A DNA stretch of 11,893 nucleotides from contig JBDRCC010000018.1 in assembly GCA_043822065.1 (NCBI GenBank), positions 1-11,893 on the forward strand, read 5' to 3'. This document shows positions 2,451 through 6,914 of the stretch, in pieces (position 1 is the stretch's first letter; every line of letters starts with the position of its first letter). Source of the stretch: an archaeon (GTDB taxonomy: Archaea > Undinarchaeota > CAZHTU01 > JBDRCC01). The position numbers and the translations under genes are program-made. The notes under the pieces were generated by a model. It saw nothing but the letters and a program-made list of their open reading frames with translations. It had not been told where the DNA came from and made no database searches.

Positions 2451-3799
2451 TATAACAGAAATGTCCTGTTGTCTGTCTTTTCAGTCAGTTCACCTGAATA
2501 GTTGGTAAGCATTATTTTCTTGGCCTCTTCCTGCGTTTTTGCCTGGGGCAGCGCCCATCCTAGCTTTACATAGGCAGTTTCAGGGAGCATGTCACCAAGC
2601 GGCACGACCCCTATAGACTGCAGGTCCCTTGCAGGCGAATATACATTCATCTGGACCCTGCCGTAGATGCACTGCGAAGCCATCCCAACAAAGCCCCCTG
2701 AGTCGATGAATTCTCGTATATTCTCGAAAAGCTCGGCGTTCTTTGTCGTATGCTCGTCTATCTTTGTGATGGGCAGCTGCCCTAAGCCGGTCCCTTCAAA
2801 GATTATACCCTTGTAGCCAAGTTTTGACAAATTGGAGATGCACGCCGGGTCAAAGCCAGGGTAGGATTTTATGAGGGCGACTTTCTCCTCGAATTTGTCC
2901 TTTGTGTCCACTTTTCGATTTTTGTCCCTTTTCTGGTAGTCGCTGCGGAGGAACTCTATCTTTCCGTCAGGCCAGACCTTTGCGAAAGGCCTCTGGTTCA
3001 CTGAGCGGAACGCATCCCGCCTTGAGGTGTGGAGCTTGCGGACTTTAGTCCCTTCGTGGATGTAGCAGTACTCGTCTGACTCGTTGGCGTGCATGCAAAC
3101 GACGACCCCTGCAAAGTCGGCTTTTGCTGCGAAATGCGCCGCGCAGATGAGATTTTGGGCGGCATCGGACGAGCCGCGGTCAGATGATCTTTGGGACCCG
3201 ACGAGGACGACAGGGACGGGCAGGAAACGCAGGGCGAATGCGAGGGCGGCGGAGGTGAAGTGAAGTGTGTCAGTGCCATGAGGCACGACTACTCCGTCGA
3301 CGTTTTTTGAGAGCTCCTTGCAGATCTCCTTAGCCATTAAGGTATAGTGGATTGGCCGGATATTCTCTGAAAACACGTTTAGGGGGGCCCGAGCATCTAT
3401 ATTGGCGATTTCATTAAGCTCGGGGACCATGCTGACCAAGTCCTCCGGCGTGAATTGGGGGAGTACGCCGCCAGTCCTGTAATCTACCTTTGAGGCAATT
3501 GTTCCCCCCATGTGGAGGATGCTGATGGTTGGCTTTTTAGGGTCTTTCTGGAGCTCTATCCGGGAGGATTTCTTCAAGAGCTTAGACTCCAGCTTTTCAA
3601 TCTTTTCGTTTCCGCTTATCTCGATGCCCCGGTTATACCCGCTTTTGAGCTTTAGGACTATGTGGGCGTCGTCGCTGAGCTCTGTCCGCGGCATTATGAT
3701 GCCTTCGTAGGCGTCCTTCCCGGACTTTAGGAGTATTTTGTCCCCCACTGAAACCTTGTATTTTTCAAGAATTTTCTTTGACAAGCCAGCGTAAGCCAT
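2450..3799 (-). CDS. gatD: Glu-tRNA(Gln) amidotransferase subunit D (asparaginase-like glutaminase)
   Basis: KLKSGYNRG N-terminal domain, GGTIASKVDYRTG, HGTDT, GSQRSSDRGSSD, VRKLHTSRRDAF, GTGLG, DMLPETAYVKL. Start placed at ATG 3799 (449 aa) rather than TTG 3853. The stop overlaps the gatE start (TAATG). Confidence 0.97.
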   Translation of the reverse strand: MAYAGLSKKILEKYKVSVGDKILLKSGKDAYEGIIMPRTELSDDAHIVLKLKSGYNRGIEISGNEKIEKLESKLLKKSSRIELQKDPKKPTISILHMGGTIASKVDYRTGGVLPQFTPEDLVSMVPELNEIANIDARAPLNVFSENIRPIHYTLMAKEICKELSKNVDGVVVPHGTDTLHFTSAALAFALRFLPVPVVLVGSQRSSDRGSSDAAQNLICAAHFAAKADFAGVVVCMHANESDEYCYIHEGTKVRKLHTSRRDAFRSVNQRPFAKVWPDGKIEFLRSDYQKRDKNRKVDTKDKFEEKVALIKSYPGFDPACISNLSKLGYKGIIFEGTGLGQLPITKIDEHTTKNAELFENIREFIDSGGFVGMASQCIYGRVQMNVYSPARDLQSIGVVPLGDMLPETAYVKLGWALPQAKTQEEAKKIMLTNYSGELTEKTDNRTFLL

Positions 3800-3822
3800 G
3801 GTGAAACCAAAGCTCAGGTGAG

Positions 3823-3829
3823 TAATAAA
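3823..3829 (-). promoter_or_regulatory. Candidate TATA box for a near-leaderless gatD transcript
   Basis: Minus-strand TTTATTA 24-30 nt upstream of ATG 3799; no SD before gatD. Confidence 0.5.
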
Positions 3830-3830
3830 G

Positions 3831-3854
3831 CTTGTGGAAAAAGTTTTCCACAAG
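3831..3854. promoter_or_regulatory. Perfect inverted repeat, probable operator (core GGAA-N6-TTCC)
   Basis: CTTGTGGAAAA-AG-TTTTCCACAAG, with 11-bp perfect arms; GGAA 3836-3839, TTCC 3846-3849. An extra half-site TGGAAAAA lies at 3876-3883. Confidence 0.7.
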
Positions 3855-3906
3855 AAATATAGGTTATATATTTTCTGGAAAAATTACGAAAAAAGGCGCA
3901 AAATGT

Positions 3907-3922
3907 GAGAAATGTTTAAATA
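3907..3922 (+). promoter_or_regulatory. Candidate distal BRE/TATA promoter of ftsZ
   Basis: GAGAAATG-TTTAAATA (TATA 3915-3922); predicts a start near 3944, about 177 nt before the ftsZ ATG. Confidence 0.55.
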
Positions 3923-3944
3923 GTACTTCCCGTATTGAGATAAG

Positions 3945-4070
3945 TGCCCAAGAATAATCCGAACTTTGCCCAAAGTTTGGTTATTTCGAACGTGTATTGA
4001 AACATCATAGCCCTTGAAGATTTTTGCCCAATCCAATCAAAGGACTAATCAATTTCTATTTGCCCAAGAA
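3945..4070 (+). repeat. Four direct copies of TGCCCAA upstream of ftsZ
   Basis: TGCCCAA at 3945, 3967, 4025 and 4061; copies 2-4 are TTTGCCCAA; copies 1 and 4 are TGCCCAAGAA. Confidence 0.85.
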
Positions 4071-4086
4071 AGAAATGACACACCAG

Positions 4087-4113
4087 TATATAAATCTAAC
4101 GGTGGGGGAGTGA
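4087..4113 (+). promoter_or_regulatory. Proximal TATA-like box and SD-like site of ftsZ
   Basis: TATATAAA at 4087-4094; GGGGAGTGA at 4105-4113, 7 nt before ATG 4121. Confidence 0.5.
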
Positions 4114-4120
4114 AGAAAAA

Positions 4121-5356
4121 ATGAGCTTTGCATCGTTCCTAGAAAGGGTATCGGATGAAGTTGAGGCACCGCCTCATCTTAGTCCGCAACAGCCTGTTTC
4201 TGAGCCGTCGCACGAGACGGCTGAGAGGAGGCCAGAATCCACGCAGCCGAAACCGCATGTCGAATTTAAATCTGAGGACAATTTTGACGGTTTTGAAACG
4301 CCCGACGCAAGGATAGTAATAGTCGGGGTTGGCGGCGCTGGAAACAACACCGTGACGCGGCTCGTCAATATGGGCGGGGCTCACGGCGCAGAAACTGCCA
4401 TACTCAACACTGACAAGCAGCACCTTAAGGTCTCAAAGGCTGACAAAAAGCTCCTTATCGGCTACGAGCTGACAAAGGGCCTTGGCGCCGGCGGATTCCC
4501 GAAAATAGGCAGGGAAGCTGCCCTTGAGAGCAAGGATGAAATACGGGACCTAGTAAGGAACGCAAACCTCTGCTTCCTGTCAACCGGACTTGGCGGGGGC
4601 ACGGGCACGGGAGCCGTGTCAGTCGTCGCGGAGCTTGCCAAGAAAGAGGGTGCGATAGTAATTGCAGTCTGCACCATGCCTTTCAACATGGAAAAAGCCA
4701 GAATCGAGAAAGCTGAGGAAGGCCTTATCCAGCTGAGGGAGCTGGCAGACACAGTAATAGTCATAGACAACAACAAGCTGGTCGAATACGTCCCGGACCT
4801 GCCCCTGAACAAGGCATTCGCCGTGGCGGACGAGCTGATTGCAACTATGATTCGGGGGATATCTGAGACGATAACCAAACCGTCTCTCGTAAACCTCGAT
4901 TTCGCCGACATAAAGGCGACCATGAGCAACGGCGGCGTTGCCATGATTGGAGTAGGAGAATCAAACACCAAAAACAGAGCTGAAGAAGCTGTGCAGGACG
5001 CATTGCGCCACCCGCTCCTGGACGTGGACTTTAAGGGCGCCACTGGCGCGCTTATCCACATAACGGGTGGAGAAGACCTAAGCCTGTCGGAGGCCACAAA
5101 AGTAGGTGAGATGGTTTCCAACCACTTAGACCCGCATGCGCAAGTAATATGGGGAGCAAGGATTGACCCAGGCTATACCGGGAAACTGCAAGTGATGTGC
5201 ATCCTGACCGGAGTAAAATCCCCGCAGATACTGGGCAGGCTGCCAATGGGCACGGCACGCAGCGTAGCGATGCGCAGTGAAGAGCTGCCGCTGACGCCGT
5301 ATGTCCCGCGGAAACCGCCACTGCTCAGGGAGATGAACATAGACTACATCTACTAA
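4121..5356 (+). CDS. ftsZ: Cell division protein FtsZ, archaeal FtsZ2-type
   Basis: VGVGGAGNN, NTDKQHL, GLGAGG, tubulin signature GGGTGTG, T7 loop NLDFAD, VIWGA. RIVIVG, KAEEGL, ISETITxPSLxNLD and HPLLDVD resemble haloarchaeal FtsZ2 as I recall it (paralog call less certain than family call). C-terminal NIDYIY resembles the archaeal GID-type tail. Confidence 0.97.
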   Translation: MSFASFLERVSDEVEAPPHLSPQQPVSEPSHETAERRPESTQPKPHVEFKSEDNFDGFETPDARIVIVGVGGAGNNTVTRLVNMGGAHGAETAILNTDKQHLKVSKADKKLLIGYELTKGLGAGGFPKIGREAALESKDEIRDLVRNANLCFLSTGLGGGTGTGAVSVVAELAKKEGAIVIAVCTMPFNMEKARIEKAEEGLIQLRELADTVIVIDNNKLVEYVPDLPLNKAFAVADELIATMIRGISETITKPSLVNLDFADIKATMSNGGVAMIGVGESNTKNRAEEAVQDALRHPLLDVDFKGATGALIHITGGEDLSLSEATKVGEMVSNHLDPHAQVIWGARIDPGYTGKLQVMCILTGVKSPQILGRLPMGTARSVAMRSEELPLTPYVPRKPPLLREMNIDYIY

Positions 5357-5600
5357 ACCAACACCAACAAACCCGAACTGGGCCGTCCGGAAGGGCGGCC
5401 CTCACACTCCCCGAGAGGAAATAACGCTATAACAACAAACCAACAAACCCCAAAAAACAAAACCAACCCCCTGGGCTGCCTTAACTGGCAGCCCTTCATA
5501 GTCCTTATTTCATAAGGACGCGCACCAACCAACCCCAATATATAACCCCTAAAAACCTCCTGCCTTCTGATTTTCGGGGGGCTTCGGCCCCCTGGAATCC
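5357..5600 (+). ncRNA. Putative structured 3' UTR / small RNA: four hairpins separated by A/C-only linkers
   Basis: Hairpins at 5380-5401 (9 bp, one G-U, GGAA loop), 5473-5494 (8 bp), 5501-5519 (8 bp) and 5569-5599 (cUUCGg loop, G-U pairs). A/C-only runs at 5355-5374, 5431-5471 and 5523-5538. The tetraloops and G-U pairs work on the + strand. Confidence 0.5.
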
Positions 5601-5646: not shown

Positions 5647-6114
5647 CTATCTTTCGCGCTTTTCCCACTCGATAACTTCGCCCTTCTCGTCAAGGGTTAC
5701 TGAGTGGATGACGCCTCTGTCCTTGAACTCGAAATAGTAGCCGCCGGCATCGCGCTTCATGGCTTTTATCGGCTCGATGTTGTTCGGAAGCAGCGCGTGG
5801 GTGATTAGGTACTTCTTTGCGATTGAGGTTGCATGCGGAAGGTTTAGTGTGACGGATTTCGCGGAGAACTGGTAGTCCTCATCTTCCTTTTCCGCCTGCG
5901 CGCCAAAGCCGGAGAGCGCAGAGAATGACGTTGCAGCTACCTCTTTTTGCGCTTCGACTGATGAGTAGTCAAGCTCGTGGATGTCCTCCTTGCGGAGCTT
6001 GGCGCCCTTTTGAGGGGCTGGCGGCTTTTTTCCTGACGTAGCGTATGGGTCGCGGAACGGCCCTTCGGTCAGCTCCTCTTTTTTCTTGAAGTGCTTTAAG
6101 ATGTCAAATTTCAT
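5647..6114 (-). CDS. Hypothetical protein, 155 aa (amphipathic N-terminus, low-complexity linker, small alpha/beta PepSY-like C-terminal domain)
   Basis: C-terminal part of the 414-aa track ORF, from MKFDILKHF (ATG 6114). It fills the gap after the permease stop and has a TATA box at the usual distance. The fold guess is by eye. Confidence 0.8.
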   Translation of the reverse strand: MKFDILKHFKKKEELTEGPFRDPYATSGKKPPAPQKGAKLRKEDIHELDYSSVEAQKEVAATSFSALSGFGAQAEKEDEDYQFSAKSVTLNLPHATSIAKKYLITHALLPNNIEPIKAMKRDAGGYYFEFKDRGVIHSVTLDEKGEVIEWEKRER

Positions 6115-6137
6115 GCCTGTAGTAAATGGGGGACGGG

Positions 6138-6152
6138 TATATATTTCTTTCC
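6138..6152 (-). promoter_or_regulatory. Candidate BRE/TATA for the 155-aa gene
   Basis: Minus strand GGAAAGAAATATATA, with the TATA about 24-30 nt upstream of ATG 6114. Confidence 0.55.
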
Positions 6153-6164
6153 AAGGCGGCTGAG

Positions 6165-6914
6165 TTATACCTCTATTTTCGAGAATGCGACGGCGCTGAG
6201 TGTGAAAATGATGATTATGGCGCCTACCAAGACGGCCAAATCTGTGCCGAGACCGAAGAGGGTGGACGATGCAAGGGTGCCGCGCAAGCCGTCGACGCCG
6301 TAGGACAACGGGTCGATGCGCGCGATAAATCCAATTGACGGCGGCAGGTTTTCGATGGGAAACAGCGCACCTGAGAGGAAAAACATGGGCATCAGGAGGA
6401 AGTTCATTATCAGCGGAAACGCGTGCATGTCCTCCATTACTGAAGCAATAGCAGTCCCCATCGCAGTGAAGAGCATGCCGACGAGGAACATAAAAAGCAG
6501 GGCAAGCGGAATCATTGAAGGATTCAGCGGCCTGAAGCCTACGACAAGGGTTATCAAAAGGACGACAATGCCCTGCGCAAAGGCAACGGTCGCGCCGCCG
6601 AGGGTCCTGCCAACGACAATTGTGAGCCTTGAAACCGGTGCCACAAGGGTCTCTTTGAGGAAGCCAAATTGCCGGTCCCATATGACCTCTATCCCCATGA
6701 ACATCGCTGTGAAGAGGATGCCCATCGCGATTATGCCCGGCGCGAGAAAGTCCAGGTAGTTTCCGCCCCCTGCTTTCTGGAATATCGGGCCGAATCCAAA
6801 CCACAGGGCAACAAGGAAAAGCAGAGGCTGGCCGAGCGAGCCAATCATGCGCGAACGCGACCGCACGTACCTCTTCAGCTGGCGTATCCAAAGGATGTAT
6901 ATCTCTTCGAGCAT
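6165..6914 (-). CDS. ABC-2 type exporter permease (DrrB-like)
   Basis: 249 aa with about six hydrophobic segments; YLDFLAPGII, DRQFGFLKETLVAPVSR, PMFFLSGALFPI and DPLSYGVDGLR are ABC-2 membrane motifs; directly follows the ATPase (TAAATG). Confidence 0.95.
   Translation of the reverse strand: MLEEIYILWIRQLKRYVRSRSRMIGSLGQPLLFLVALWFGFGPIFQKAGGGNYLDFLAPGIIAMGILFTAMFMGIEVIWDRQFGFLKETLVAPVSRLTIVVGRTLGGATVAFAQGIVVLLITLVVGFRPLNPSMIPLALLFMFLVGMLFTAMGTAIASVMEDMHAFPLIMNFLLMPMFFLSGALFPIENLPPSIGFIARIDPLSYGVDGLRGTLASSTLFGLGTDLAVLVGAIIIIFTLSAVAFSKIEV

Follow-up and report, generated by a model that had tools for sequence, protein, structure and literature searches.

A hairpin array with conserved GC-rich tips upstream of ftsZ2 in Undinarchaeota and other small-genome archaea: a possible RNA-level control region

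Introduction

How is the cell-division gene ftsZ2 controlled in those archaea in which it is not preceded by cdrS? The question is raised by a stretch of 11,893 nucleotides (hereafter, the window) from contig JBDRCC010000018.1 of an archaeon of the phylum Undinarchaeota (GCA_043822065.1), in which a 320-bp AT-rich gap separates the divergent genes gatD (minus strand) and ftsZ2 (plus strand) and harbors an array of short motifs, TGCCCAA, largely displayed on hairpins. The association of cdrS with ftsZ2 has been reported across all archaeal clades but DPANN, according to the part of the survey cited here (PMC7439475).

A first-pass annotation of the window interpreted this array as a set of sites for a division regulator acting in trans, either on DNA or, with a CsrA-like logic, on RNA loops, and possibly shared with other division genes. 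The first half of this proposal, i.e., a selected, hairpin-displayed array tied to ftsZ2 in a cdrS-less lineage, was retained by the analysis reported here; the second half was not, as neither a regulon nor a CsrA-like partner was found.

The motif array and its hairpins

The genome containing the window (G000; 1.03 Mb, 82% complete) is the only member of its family, and two other genomes of the same order (G001 and G002) are available. In the window, TGCCCAA occurs exactly four times, always on the plus strand (starts at 3945, 3967, 4025, and 4061) and within 126 bp, which confirms the four same-orientation copies annotated previously. Three of the copies are exact 9-mers TTTGCCCAA (at 3965, 4023, and 4059), and a fifth GCCC is located at 4010, within the block AGCCCTTGAAGATTTTTGCCCAA. 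The number of copies by itself is ordinary (at least four were found in 23 of 200 shuffles of the window); what makes the array stand out is their clustering, since the expected number of same-strand runs of at least four copies within 126 nt is about 5.4e-6 genome-wide, as computed from the 111 copies present on both strands of G000. The array is thus real and far beyond chance. The features to which the following sections refer are:

3909..3926, plus strand: distal promoter P1, a transcription factor B recognition element (BRE) plus a TATA element (TTTAAATA at 3915-3922); 11.2 bits, predicted start at about 3945.
3945..3951, plus strand: copy 1, (G)TGCCCAA, unpaired, at the predicted P1 start; its GCCC counterpart in G001 also lies 31 nt after the TATA start.
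3959..3980, plus strand: hairpin 2, CCGAACTTT / GCCC / AAAGTTTGG, carrying copy 2 (3967-3973); minimum-energy fold of -8.4 kcal/mol.
4009..4031, plus strand: best-conserved block AGCCCTTGAAGATTTTTGCCCAA, with the extra GCCC (4010), a T5 run (4021-4025), and copy 3 (4025-4031), inside the weak hairpin 3 (4008-4047).
4052..4076, plus strand: hairpin 4, ATTTCT ... AGAAAT, with copy 4 (4061-4067) at its tip; a predicted minus-strand start (about 4064) falls in this copy.
4083..4100, minus strand: proximal TATA element P2, TATATAAA at 4087-4094 (plus strand), 34 nt before the ATG; 10.1 bits on the minus strand versus 3.6 bits on the plus strand.
4101..4110, plus strand: G-rich, Shine-Dalgarno-like stretch GGTGGGGGAG, read from the sequence; it corresponds to GGGGGAG in G001 and to GGGGGG in the metagenomic leader L033.
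4121..5356, plus strand: FtsZ2, 411 aa, with Pfam Tubulin and FtsZ_C domains; the array directly precedes this gene.

Hairpin 2 consists of 9 bp (3959-3967 with 3972-3980) including one G-U, with GCCC as its loop; copy 3 is located in a weaker hairpin (-6.3 kcal/mol), and hairpin 4 is formed by the pairing of 4052-4057 with 4071-4076 plus three inner pairs (-3.8 kcal/mol). The hairpins previously drawn for copies 2 and 4 were hence reproduced, and the idea that the motif is exposed on GCCC loops holds for copies 2-4, copy 1 being unpaired. The folding of the whole leader is no better than that of shuffled sequences (z -0.38 in G000, with 68 of 200 shuffles as good; z -0.52 for a second leader), and the excess of GCCC sites within stems of at least 5 bp is modest when G000 and G001 alone are considered (5 of 10 versus 1.97 in shuffles, P 0.03). 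In the whole of G000, GCCC was not found to be enriched in hairpin loops (84 per 1000 sites versus 77-92 for the other 15 G/C tetramers), so that the display of GCCC on hairpins is local to the array rather than a habit of the genome. The heptamer GTATTGA is also repeated (3932 and 3994), and the two units that it opens are identical in 28 of 49 aligned columns, as expected for the decayed unit of about 60 bp that had been suggested.

Two roles for the loops were considered and rejected. Pairing with the Shine-Dalgarno-like stretch would involve only 3-4 bp in G000 and 3 bp in G001, which is too weak and not conserved; moreover, none of 32 predicted tRNAs has an acceptor stem with GCCCAA/TTGGGC, one strand of which the loops might have represented.

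Conservation in near relatives

The conservation of the array in relatives had been proposed beforehand as a check, which the array passes. G001, which belongs to a different family, is the only same-order relative in which the gene was found; its ftsZ2 lies at a contig end, and the encoded protein shares 75% identity with the window FtsZ over residues 48-227. G001 keeps five GCCC in unchanged order, in the following arrangement: TATA, GTGCCCAA 31 nt on, a GCCC-loop hairpin, AGCCCTGAAGTTTTTGCCCA (aligning with the block AGCCCTTGAAGATTTTTGCCCAA), a hairpin around AAGCCC, GTATATAAA, GGGGGAG, and ATG. The spacings at the borders of the array are nearly the same in G000 and G001 (first TATA to first GCCC, 31 and 31 nt; last GCCC to second TATA, 25 and 26 nt; second TATA to ATG, 34 and 34 nt), whereas those between the copies differ (22, 58, and 36 nt in the window versus 44, 48, and 34 nt).

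As for the hairpins, the stem CCGAACTTT/AAAGTTTGG of hairpin 2 is replaced in G001 by (T)GTCCTTT/AAAGGAC(A), an 8-bp stem with a different outer part (GTCC/GGAC); the arms have changed, pairing has been kept, and the GCCC loop is unchanged. Similarly, ATTTCT/AGAAAT of hairpin 4 corresponds to TTCTGT/ACAGAA around AAGCCC. The T5 run at copy 3 is present in both genomes. The ordered motifs, together with stems that change in a compensatory way around constant tips, support the view that the array is a selected feature linked to ftsZ2.

In the other genome of the order, G002 (72% complete), no FtsZ2 orthologue was found with the window protein as a query, and a pattern search revealed four isolated TGCCCA pairs but no TGCCCA chain. 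A metagenome scan with the FtsZ2 protein disclosed 470 stretches encoding a relative, 80 of which were kept; the leaders examined among them are L033-L035. Counting 28-29 nt from the beginning of the distal TATA, i.e., at the position of a leaderless start codon in G000, a GTG is found in G000 (3944-4000), in G001 (L032 5655-5687), and in L033; it opens frames of 18, 10, and 13 codons, respectively, whose sequences are dissimilar, and which could be leaderless micro-open reading frames (ORFs) or a mere initiator.

A wider class of ftsZ2-linked hairpin arrays

The analysis was extended to the 300 nt upstream of the FtsZ2 orthologues of more distant relatives. Undinarchaeota are represented in the collection by 17 genomes, including Ca. 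Naiadarchaeum limnaeum (G004). Ten of their leaders contain a long irregular hairpin with a 6-nt tip, which reads TTGCCG in six leaders (families f7 and f8) and the exact reverse complement, CGGCAA, in four (f6 and f9); the stems covary (CATGAG, CATCAG, GCCAG, ACCAG, GTCAG). The inner loops, which are asymmetric, and a flanking block (GCCCTATTCAGGA..TATCCAT) keep their orientation in spite of the flipped tips, which rules out the inversion of the whole cassette as the source of the flip. In Ca. Naiadarchaeum, two GGGCAA boxes are located upstream of its own P1.

For Nanohaloarchaeota (70 genomes, 30 leaders examined, the phylum being assigned from leaders identical to named records), all 30 leaders show the same succession, that is, a TATA element, 3-6 hairpins tipped by TTGGGC or near variants, TTCTA-N3-TAGAA, a second TATA-like element embedded in a covarying helix, and the ATG. 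The motif sites lying in a hairpin with at least 4 Watson-Crick pairs are 96 of 134, versus 7.8 in shuffles. In family f29 (20 aligned leaders), changes on both sides were observed in 16 of 28 consensus pairs, versus 7.7 +/- 1.5 in shuffles; since none of 500 shuffles reaches 16, the hairpins can be considered as selected. A hairpin model, built from 40 hairpins chosen for pairing out of 93 unique sequence windows, yielded 5 hits at E<=1 in five complete nanohaloarchaeal genomes, all of them in the ftsZ2 leader and in three of the genomes, the other two giving none. In the leaders L116-L144 of this phylum, the proximal TATA-like element is immediately preceded by an invariant TTCTA-N3-TAGAA palindrome, and the distal one has TGTTCA..TGAACA palindromes on its upstream side; the arms of both kinds of palindrome are conserved and operator-like, unlike those of the array hairpins.

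In a third phylum (large, with small genomes; 61 sampled, 30 leaders examined), tips of the type TGGGG, TGGGC, TGGAC, or TGGTC occur in 19 of 30 leaders. No array was seen in the records examined from Altiarchaeota (three) and Iainarchaeum (one). Tip orientation is nearly uniform within a phylum, with 87 G-class versus 1 C-class loops in the 30 nanohaloarchaeal leaders and 29 versus 2 in the third phylum; the tip of the window (GCCCA) is the complement of that of these two phyla. As judged from these sequences, at least three phyla of archaea with small genomes share one layout, in which a TATA element, hairpins whose GC-rich tip is conserved, and a second TATA element precede ftsZ2, and the window array appears as an inverted-form member of this ftsZ2-linked class, with C-rich tips on the ftsZ2 strand.

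This class apparently has not been described so far. The region 3700-4300 of the window gave no Rfam 15 match at the gathering score (at E<=10, three chance-level hits of 10.6-14 bits versus cut-offs of 50-100), no Rfam hit was found in the loci of 15 relatives and in 5 further loci, and a literature search revealed no description of such an element before ftsZ2.

The same data bear on one alternative, namely, that the array is a functionless, decayed tandem duplication of an AT-rich spacer. The match of the two GTATTGA...TTTGCCCAA units in 28 of 49 columns and the ordinary fold of the whole leader would agree with it; on the other side, G001, belonging to another family, keeps the five GCCC in order, the TATA spacings, and compensatory stems, and the same design is found in three phyla. 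This explanation is very improbable.

The gene behind the array and the missing cdrS

G000 encodes two FtsZ genes. The best match of the window FtsZ is the cdrS-adjacent copy, i.e., the one located directly 3' of a small ribbon-helix-helix ORF, in all four genomes having one (G023, G040, G026, and G033), and the second paralogue (C22:53383-54378) best-matches the non-cdrS copies of the same genomes. Because of this pairing, and on the basis of best hits rather than of a tree, the gene behind the array is taken as the cdrS-linked paralogue, FtsZ2, in agreement with the name given to it in the first place.

The position upstream of ftsZ2 is occupied by a cdrS ORF in records of Haloarcula, Marine Group IV, and Archaeoglobaceae. 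In the window, no ATG-started ORF of at least 20 aa exists on the plus strand between 3800 and 4120, and hence no small ribbon-helix-helix ORF of this kind directly 5' of ftsZ2, short leader ORFs starting with TTG or GTG lying outside the family-library search; the reported absence of cdrS ahead of ftsZ2 was thus borne out. The best CdrS-like matches in G000 are weak (E 1e-3 and 1.4e-2) and located elsewhere in the genome, beside PIN-domain genes.

Two side observations concern these regulators. In cdrS-bearing lineages (L015, L016, and L021), three (A)TTCAC direct repeats are located right after the TATA box, upstream of cdrS or ftsZ2, and might represent CdrS/CdrL-type boxes. In G000, two similar cassettes (C6:62840-64600 and C2:22100-22800) contain a PIN-domain gene convergent with a ribbon-helix-helix gene bearing a C-terminal extension; the C6 cassette is also adjoined by an AbrB-like gene with a C-terminal extension.

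Two facing promoter-like elements

Promoters were sought with an 18-nt matrix trained on 384 other upstream regions of G000, ftsZ2 being excluded (consensus GAAAAGTTTATATACTAC; modal position of the motif start, 36 nt before the start codon). G000 is largely leaderless: of 22 occurrences of TTTATATA, 15 begin 29-36 nt ahead of a start codon. The two best matches in the gap are P1, from 3909 on the plus strand (11.2 bits), and P2, from 4100 on the minus strand (10.1 bits). Both exceed the 90th percentile (9.56 bits) of the gene-best scores, and only 99 matches of at least 10 bits exist on the two strands of the whole genome. The matrix discriminates orientation: among 69 strong gene promoters, the share whose reverse reading equals or exceeds the forward one is 1.4%. 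Copies 1 and 4 coincide with the starts predicted from P1 and P2, at 3945 (+) and 4064 (-), respectively.

A similar picture was obtained in the relatives. In G001, the P1(+) match of 13.8 bits gives a predicted start at -188, next to the first GCCC (-187), and the P2(-) match of 11.8 bits gives one at -58, near the last GCCC (-61). In L033, P1 reaches 14.5 bits. Among 13 other undinarchaeotal leaders, 12 have a minus-strand match of at least 9.3 bits between the hairpin and the ATG, and 10 have a plus-strand match of at least 8.9 bits upstream of the hairpin. In Nanohaloarchaeota, to which the matrix is foreign, a minus-strand match of at least 7 bits between hairpin and ATG was found in 21 of 30 leaders, and a distal plus-strand match in 22 of 30. 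A T6 run is present on the minus strand at 3889-3894.

Two earlier claims were modified by these data. The coincidence of copy 1 with a transcription start site agrees with the matrix match at 3909, which, with the modal 36 nt, leads to 3945; it stands as a prediction. A long ftsZ2 leader is likewise predicted by P1, but the P2 TATA, at the usual leaderless distance, would allow a short transcript too, so that the long leader need not be the only ftsZ2 transcript. The Shine-Dalgarno-like stretch lies between the P2 TATA and the ATG and would be transcribed only in an mRNA starting upstream of P2. The much higher score of P2 on the minus strand suggests the involvement of an antisense RNA instead of a CsrA-like protein.

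RNA or DNA level

Several features of the array bear on the level at which it may act. In 39 hairpins, selected in a strand-symmetric way, the stems contain 269 Watson-Crick pairs and, outside the loop-closing pair, 6 G-U and 9 A-C; a separate count of internal mismatches gave 8 G-U versus 17 A-C. Nearly pure Watson-Crick stems are what would be expected if both strands must fold. RNAalifold predicted 28 pairs on the sense strand and 18 on the antisense strand, all of the latter being a subset of the former; on the 28 pairs, 37 G-U versus 9 A-C cells were counted, in a structure predicted on the sense strand, which favours G-U. The minimum-energy folds of the two strands show mirrored hairpins 2 and 3, and the fold of the overlap region amounts to -19.7 (sense) and -29.4 kcal/mol (antisense) in G000 and to -17.8 and -27.2 kcal/mol in G001; the G-rich strand, which is the antisense one in the window, folds better by about 10 kcal/mol.

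The conservation of the hairpin centre, accompanied by the covariation of the arms, is the reverse of what a dimer operator would show and supports RNA. The irregular spacings and the uniform tip orientation within a phylum count in the same direction, and no 10.5-bp helical phasing was found over 104 nanohaloarchaeal spacings (R 0.12, p about 0.22). The acceptance of the tip in either orientation in sister undinarchaeotal families counts toward a level at which both strands matter, as do the complementarity of the window tip to that of two other phyla and the nearly pure Watson-Crick stems. On the whole, an RNA-level action of some kind appears probable.

The opposite possibility is that of a DNA operator array, in which a transcription factor encoded elsewhere would bind GCCCAA/TTGGGC duplex boxes upstream of a leaderless core promoter, P2. 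The latter does lie at the canonical leaderless distance, and the boxes are located about 50-175 nt upstream of its predicted start, the range given for CdrS sites in the portion of PMC8406309 cited here being 41-110 nt. The tolerance of either tip orientation across lineages, the Watson-Crick-only stems, the two GGGCAA boxes upstream of P1 in Ca. Naiadarchaeum, and the resemblance of a one-locus array to the MraZ repeats, as these are presented in the cited part of bioRxiv 10.1101/2022.02.09.479790, would fit as well. Against this stand the conserved centre with covarying palindromic arms, which has no role in a duplex-binding model, the uniform orientation within arrays, the irregular spacings (22, 58, and 36 in G000 versus 44, 48, and 34 in G001) devoid of a 10.5-bp phase, the mere 3.6 bits of the forward reading of P2, and the fact that the best MraZ match falls below the cut-off (18.5 versus 23 bits). 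An operator array is, on this balance, unlikely.

One locus only

The first-pass annotation had suggested that the motif might define a regulon of division genes. In G000, 15 of the 111 TGCCCAA copies are intergenic according to crude gene calls (1009 ORFs, 8.8% intergenic), and four of them are the array itself. No copy precedes ftsZ1 (C22) or sepF (C22:63856-64077), where ordinary promoters are found; the other close group of copies (C6:41730-41865) falls within an open frame on the minus strand that is hydrophobic and about 110 codons long, and no second intergenic cluster was found in G000. The regulon hypothesis therefore fails. The CsrA-like logic is not supported either: CsrA (PF02599) was not found at E<=0.1 in what is available of G000 (82% complete). 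The best match to MraZ (PF02381), at 18.5 bits with a cut-off of 23, corresponds to an AbrB-like N-terminus in an ORF located beside a PIN gene.

Other repeats were noticed during these searches. The sole other intergenic inverted pair of the motif in G000 lies between divergent genes (C7:10020-10090), where TATTGGGC and TTTGCCCAATTTGCCAAAT flank TATAAAAA. A palindrome of about 22 nt, ATGCCCAAA(G/A)T(A/G)TTTTGGC(A/G)TG, is present in two copies 537 nt apart in non-coding DNA (C11:11760 and 12297). In another undinarchaeotal genome (G009), one 27-nt string with three GCCCA(A) occurs at C27:7, C30:6035, C47:1356, and C82:56, mostly at contig ends, and represents a repeat family.

The restriction to one locus also bears on the idea that the array is a separate small RNA gene beside ftsZ2, whose short product, transcribed from P1 (or from P2 on the minus strand) and ending in or just past the array, would act in trans. 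In its favour are the T5 run at copy 3, conserved in G000 and G001, and the minus-strand T6 run at 3889-3894; the G-rich strand folds better, and, as stated in the cited part of PMC8406309, the cdrS position of haloarchaea likewise gives rise to a distinct transcript of about 250 nt. Nevertheless, neither a complementary target nor a second array was detected in the 82% of G000 that is available, in three phyla the arrays are strictly linked to ftsZ2, and no T run precedes P2 in the family f29 leaders, all of which renders a trans-acting small RNA improbable.

A proposed mechanism

The reading preferred here, with a probability of roughly 40%, is that the array may be the core of an RNA-level control region of ftsZ2 transcribed from both strands, in which the leader and a cis-antisense RNA would pair through GCCC/GGGC loops. 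The sense RNA would start from P1 at copy 1 and include ftsZ2 together with hairpins 2-4 and the Shine-Dalgarno-like stretch; the cis-antisense RNA would start from the minus-strand reading of P2 at copy 4 and run back across the array. Each palindrome would fold in both RNAs, with GCCC(AA) at the sense tips and (UU)GGGC at the antisense ones, and the unpaired 5' end of each RNA would be the complement of the loops of the other. Loop-loop and end-loop contacts might then nucleate the pairing of the two RNAs, as in plasmid copy-control systems, and this pairing and/or the collision of polymerases would set the amount of translatable ftsZ2 mRNA. The motif array, its hairpins, the compensatory changes with which these are conserved, the confinement of the motif to one locus, and the promoter-like elements with their spacing are read directly from sequence; from these, we infer the two transcripts, their pairing, and an effect on ftsZ2. 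The face-to-face arrangement is favoured because it accounts for the private motif, the palindromes that fold on two strands, the complementary GC tips, the tip inversion, the two TATA elements, and the Shine-Dalgarno-like stretch.

A number of points weigh against this reading. Both start sites are matrix predictions, and the matrix, trained on G000, was applied to foreign phyla; the P2 TATA is 34 nt from the ATG, as is common for leaderless genes of G000, and P2 may simply be the ftsZ2 promoter, or bidirectional. L033 (71% identity; the only close metagenomic orthologue among the 80 kept of 470) has both TATA elements and a long gap, with no GCCC. In all 39 hairpins, the loop-closing pair is Watson-Crick or U-G (18 U-G and no A-C on the sense strand), and the nanohaloarchaeal helix around P2 (15-nt loop) is rich in G-U and runs through A-U, G-U, and G-C; both features favour the folding of the sense strand alone. 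The tip is conserved across whole phyla, although an antisense pair needs no particular loop sequence, and the one strongly preferred orientation per phylum asks for a strand-specific reader. Lastly, loops that are identical on every hairpin set the array apart from the classic plasmid systems. As tip conservation and orientation are left unexplained by a bare antisense model, there is room for a protein reading the loops or the kissing complex.

A dedicated RNA-binding protein could also act without any antisense RNA. In this case only P1 would matter, the tips of the sense leader would be repeated sites similar to iron-responsive elements or Csr sites, and the translation or decay of the long ftsZ2 mRNA would be controlled. 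Tips conserved on covarying stems, their near-uniform orientation per phylum (87:1 and 29:2), and the 18 G-U versus no A-C at the closing pair of the sense strand are in line with such a protein; in addition, the G-U-rich helix enclosing P2 would indicate that sense RNA spans P2 in Nanohaloarchaeota, and a Shine-Dalgarno-like stretch lies between the P2 TATA and the ATG. However, the tip is reverse-complemented in sister families with the same flanks, and that of the window complements those of two other phyla, so that one protein would not read both forms. Furthermore, no candidate protein emerged (CsrA was not found, and the two ribbon-helix-helix proteins sit beside PIN-domain genes), and a motif without any other target would be unusual for a global RNA-binding protein. 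Control by a protein reader alone is hence rather unlikely.

If the leader-antisense reading is extended beyond the window, it may tentatively be proposed that cdrS-less DPANN control ftsZ2 by means of an RNA device consisting of a hairpin array (UGGGN / NCCCA tips), face-to-face promoters, and leader-antisense loop recognition, in at least three phyla. In a bolder and extremely unlikely sub-case, the UGG-N tips would base-pair with uncharged tRNAs at their free NCCA ends, in the way of T-box bulges.

Comparison with known systems

ColE1 RNA I/RNA II, R1 CopA/CopT, and IS10 RNA-OUT/RNA-IN are antisense kissing-loop control RNAs of plasmids and transposons. The array shares with them several stem-loops on both strands, short GC-rich complementary loops, and a sequence present at one locus, as well as, in the predictions given above, a leader and a cis-antisense RNA from face-to-face promoters and a free 5' end able to pair with a loop. 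It differs from them in its archaeal host, in its chromosomal cell-division target, and in that both of its transcripts are predictions; moreover, all its loops share one motif whose sequence is kept across phyla, a constancy for which those systems have no need.

The RNAs bound by CsrA/RsmE expose GGA in the hairpin loops of untranslated RNA. A short motif repeated at hairpin tips is common to these RNAs and to the array, whose loops are, however, GCCC / TTTGCCCAA rather than GGA/ANGGA, with no CsrA found, no regulon, and a tip orientation that flips between lineages.

The cdrS-ftsZ2 operon, with its regulators CdrS and CdrL, has the same target and, in the parts of PMC7439475 and PMC8406309 cited here, about 170-250 nt between promoter and ftsZ2. 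The arrays occur in DPANN, that is, in the one clade excepted from the reported distribution of cdrS (PMC7439475, cited part). Unlike the operon, the array region contains hairpins and no protein-coding cistron; according to the portions of these sources cited here, the symmetric DNA motif bound by CdrS is present at 18 sites, and the array motif occupies one locus. The MraZ repeats preceding the bacterial dcw/mra operon are, in the cited part of bioRxiv 10.1101/2022.02.09.479790, 3-4 short G-rich repeats located upstream of division genes and private to them; their sequence is GTGG[A/T]G, to be compared with TTGGGC/TGGGN on one strand of the arrays, and the MraZ triple repeat is unique in its genome. 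According to the same part of that source, they have a fixed 4-nt spacer, form no hairpins, and are bound as DNA by the MraZ of the same operon. The arrays, by contrast, are irregularly spaced, without a fixed register of about 10 bp, their motifs are at hairpin tips, and no MraZ is found at the cut-off.

Neighbouring features of the window

The gatD gene starts with an ATG at 3799 on the minus strand and is followed by gatE. A perfect palindrome with 11-bp arms, CTTGTGGAAAA-AG-TTTTCCACAAG, is located at 3831-3854, in the stretch from the gatD start to P1, and a looser inverted repeat at 3841-3885; the palindrome resembles an ordinary operator or a gatD leader hairpin. Downstream of ftsZ2, two minus-strand ORFs of 61 and 414 aa (5353-5538 and 5647-6891) have an odd composition and no Pfam hits. 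They were considered as partners of the array and rejected, as they also gave no tblastn matches in the fetched loci of the relatives and are probably not genes as called.

Significance

The regulation of FtsZ-based division in archaea is known only through CdrS and CdrL, and the survey of PMC7439475, in the part cited here, did not find CdrS in DPANN. The array provides a concrete, conserved cis-element at ftsZ2 in at least three small-genome phyla, two of which are named DPANN phyla, with hairpins defined well enough for covariance models. If the DNA reading were true, the array would be the operator of a hitherto unrecognised division regulator; in the tRNA-end sub-case, division would be tied to the nutrient supply from the host. 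If the RNA reading is true, archaeal cell division would have its first case of control by RNA, and an RNA would hold the place that a protein regulator has elsewhere.

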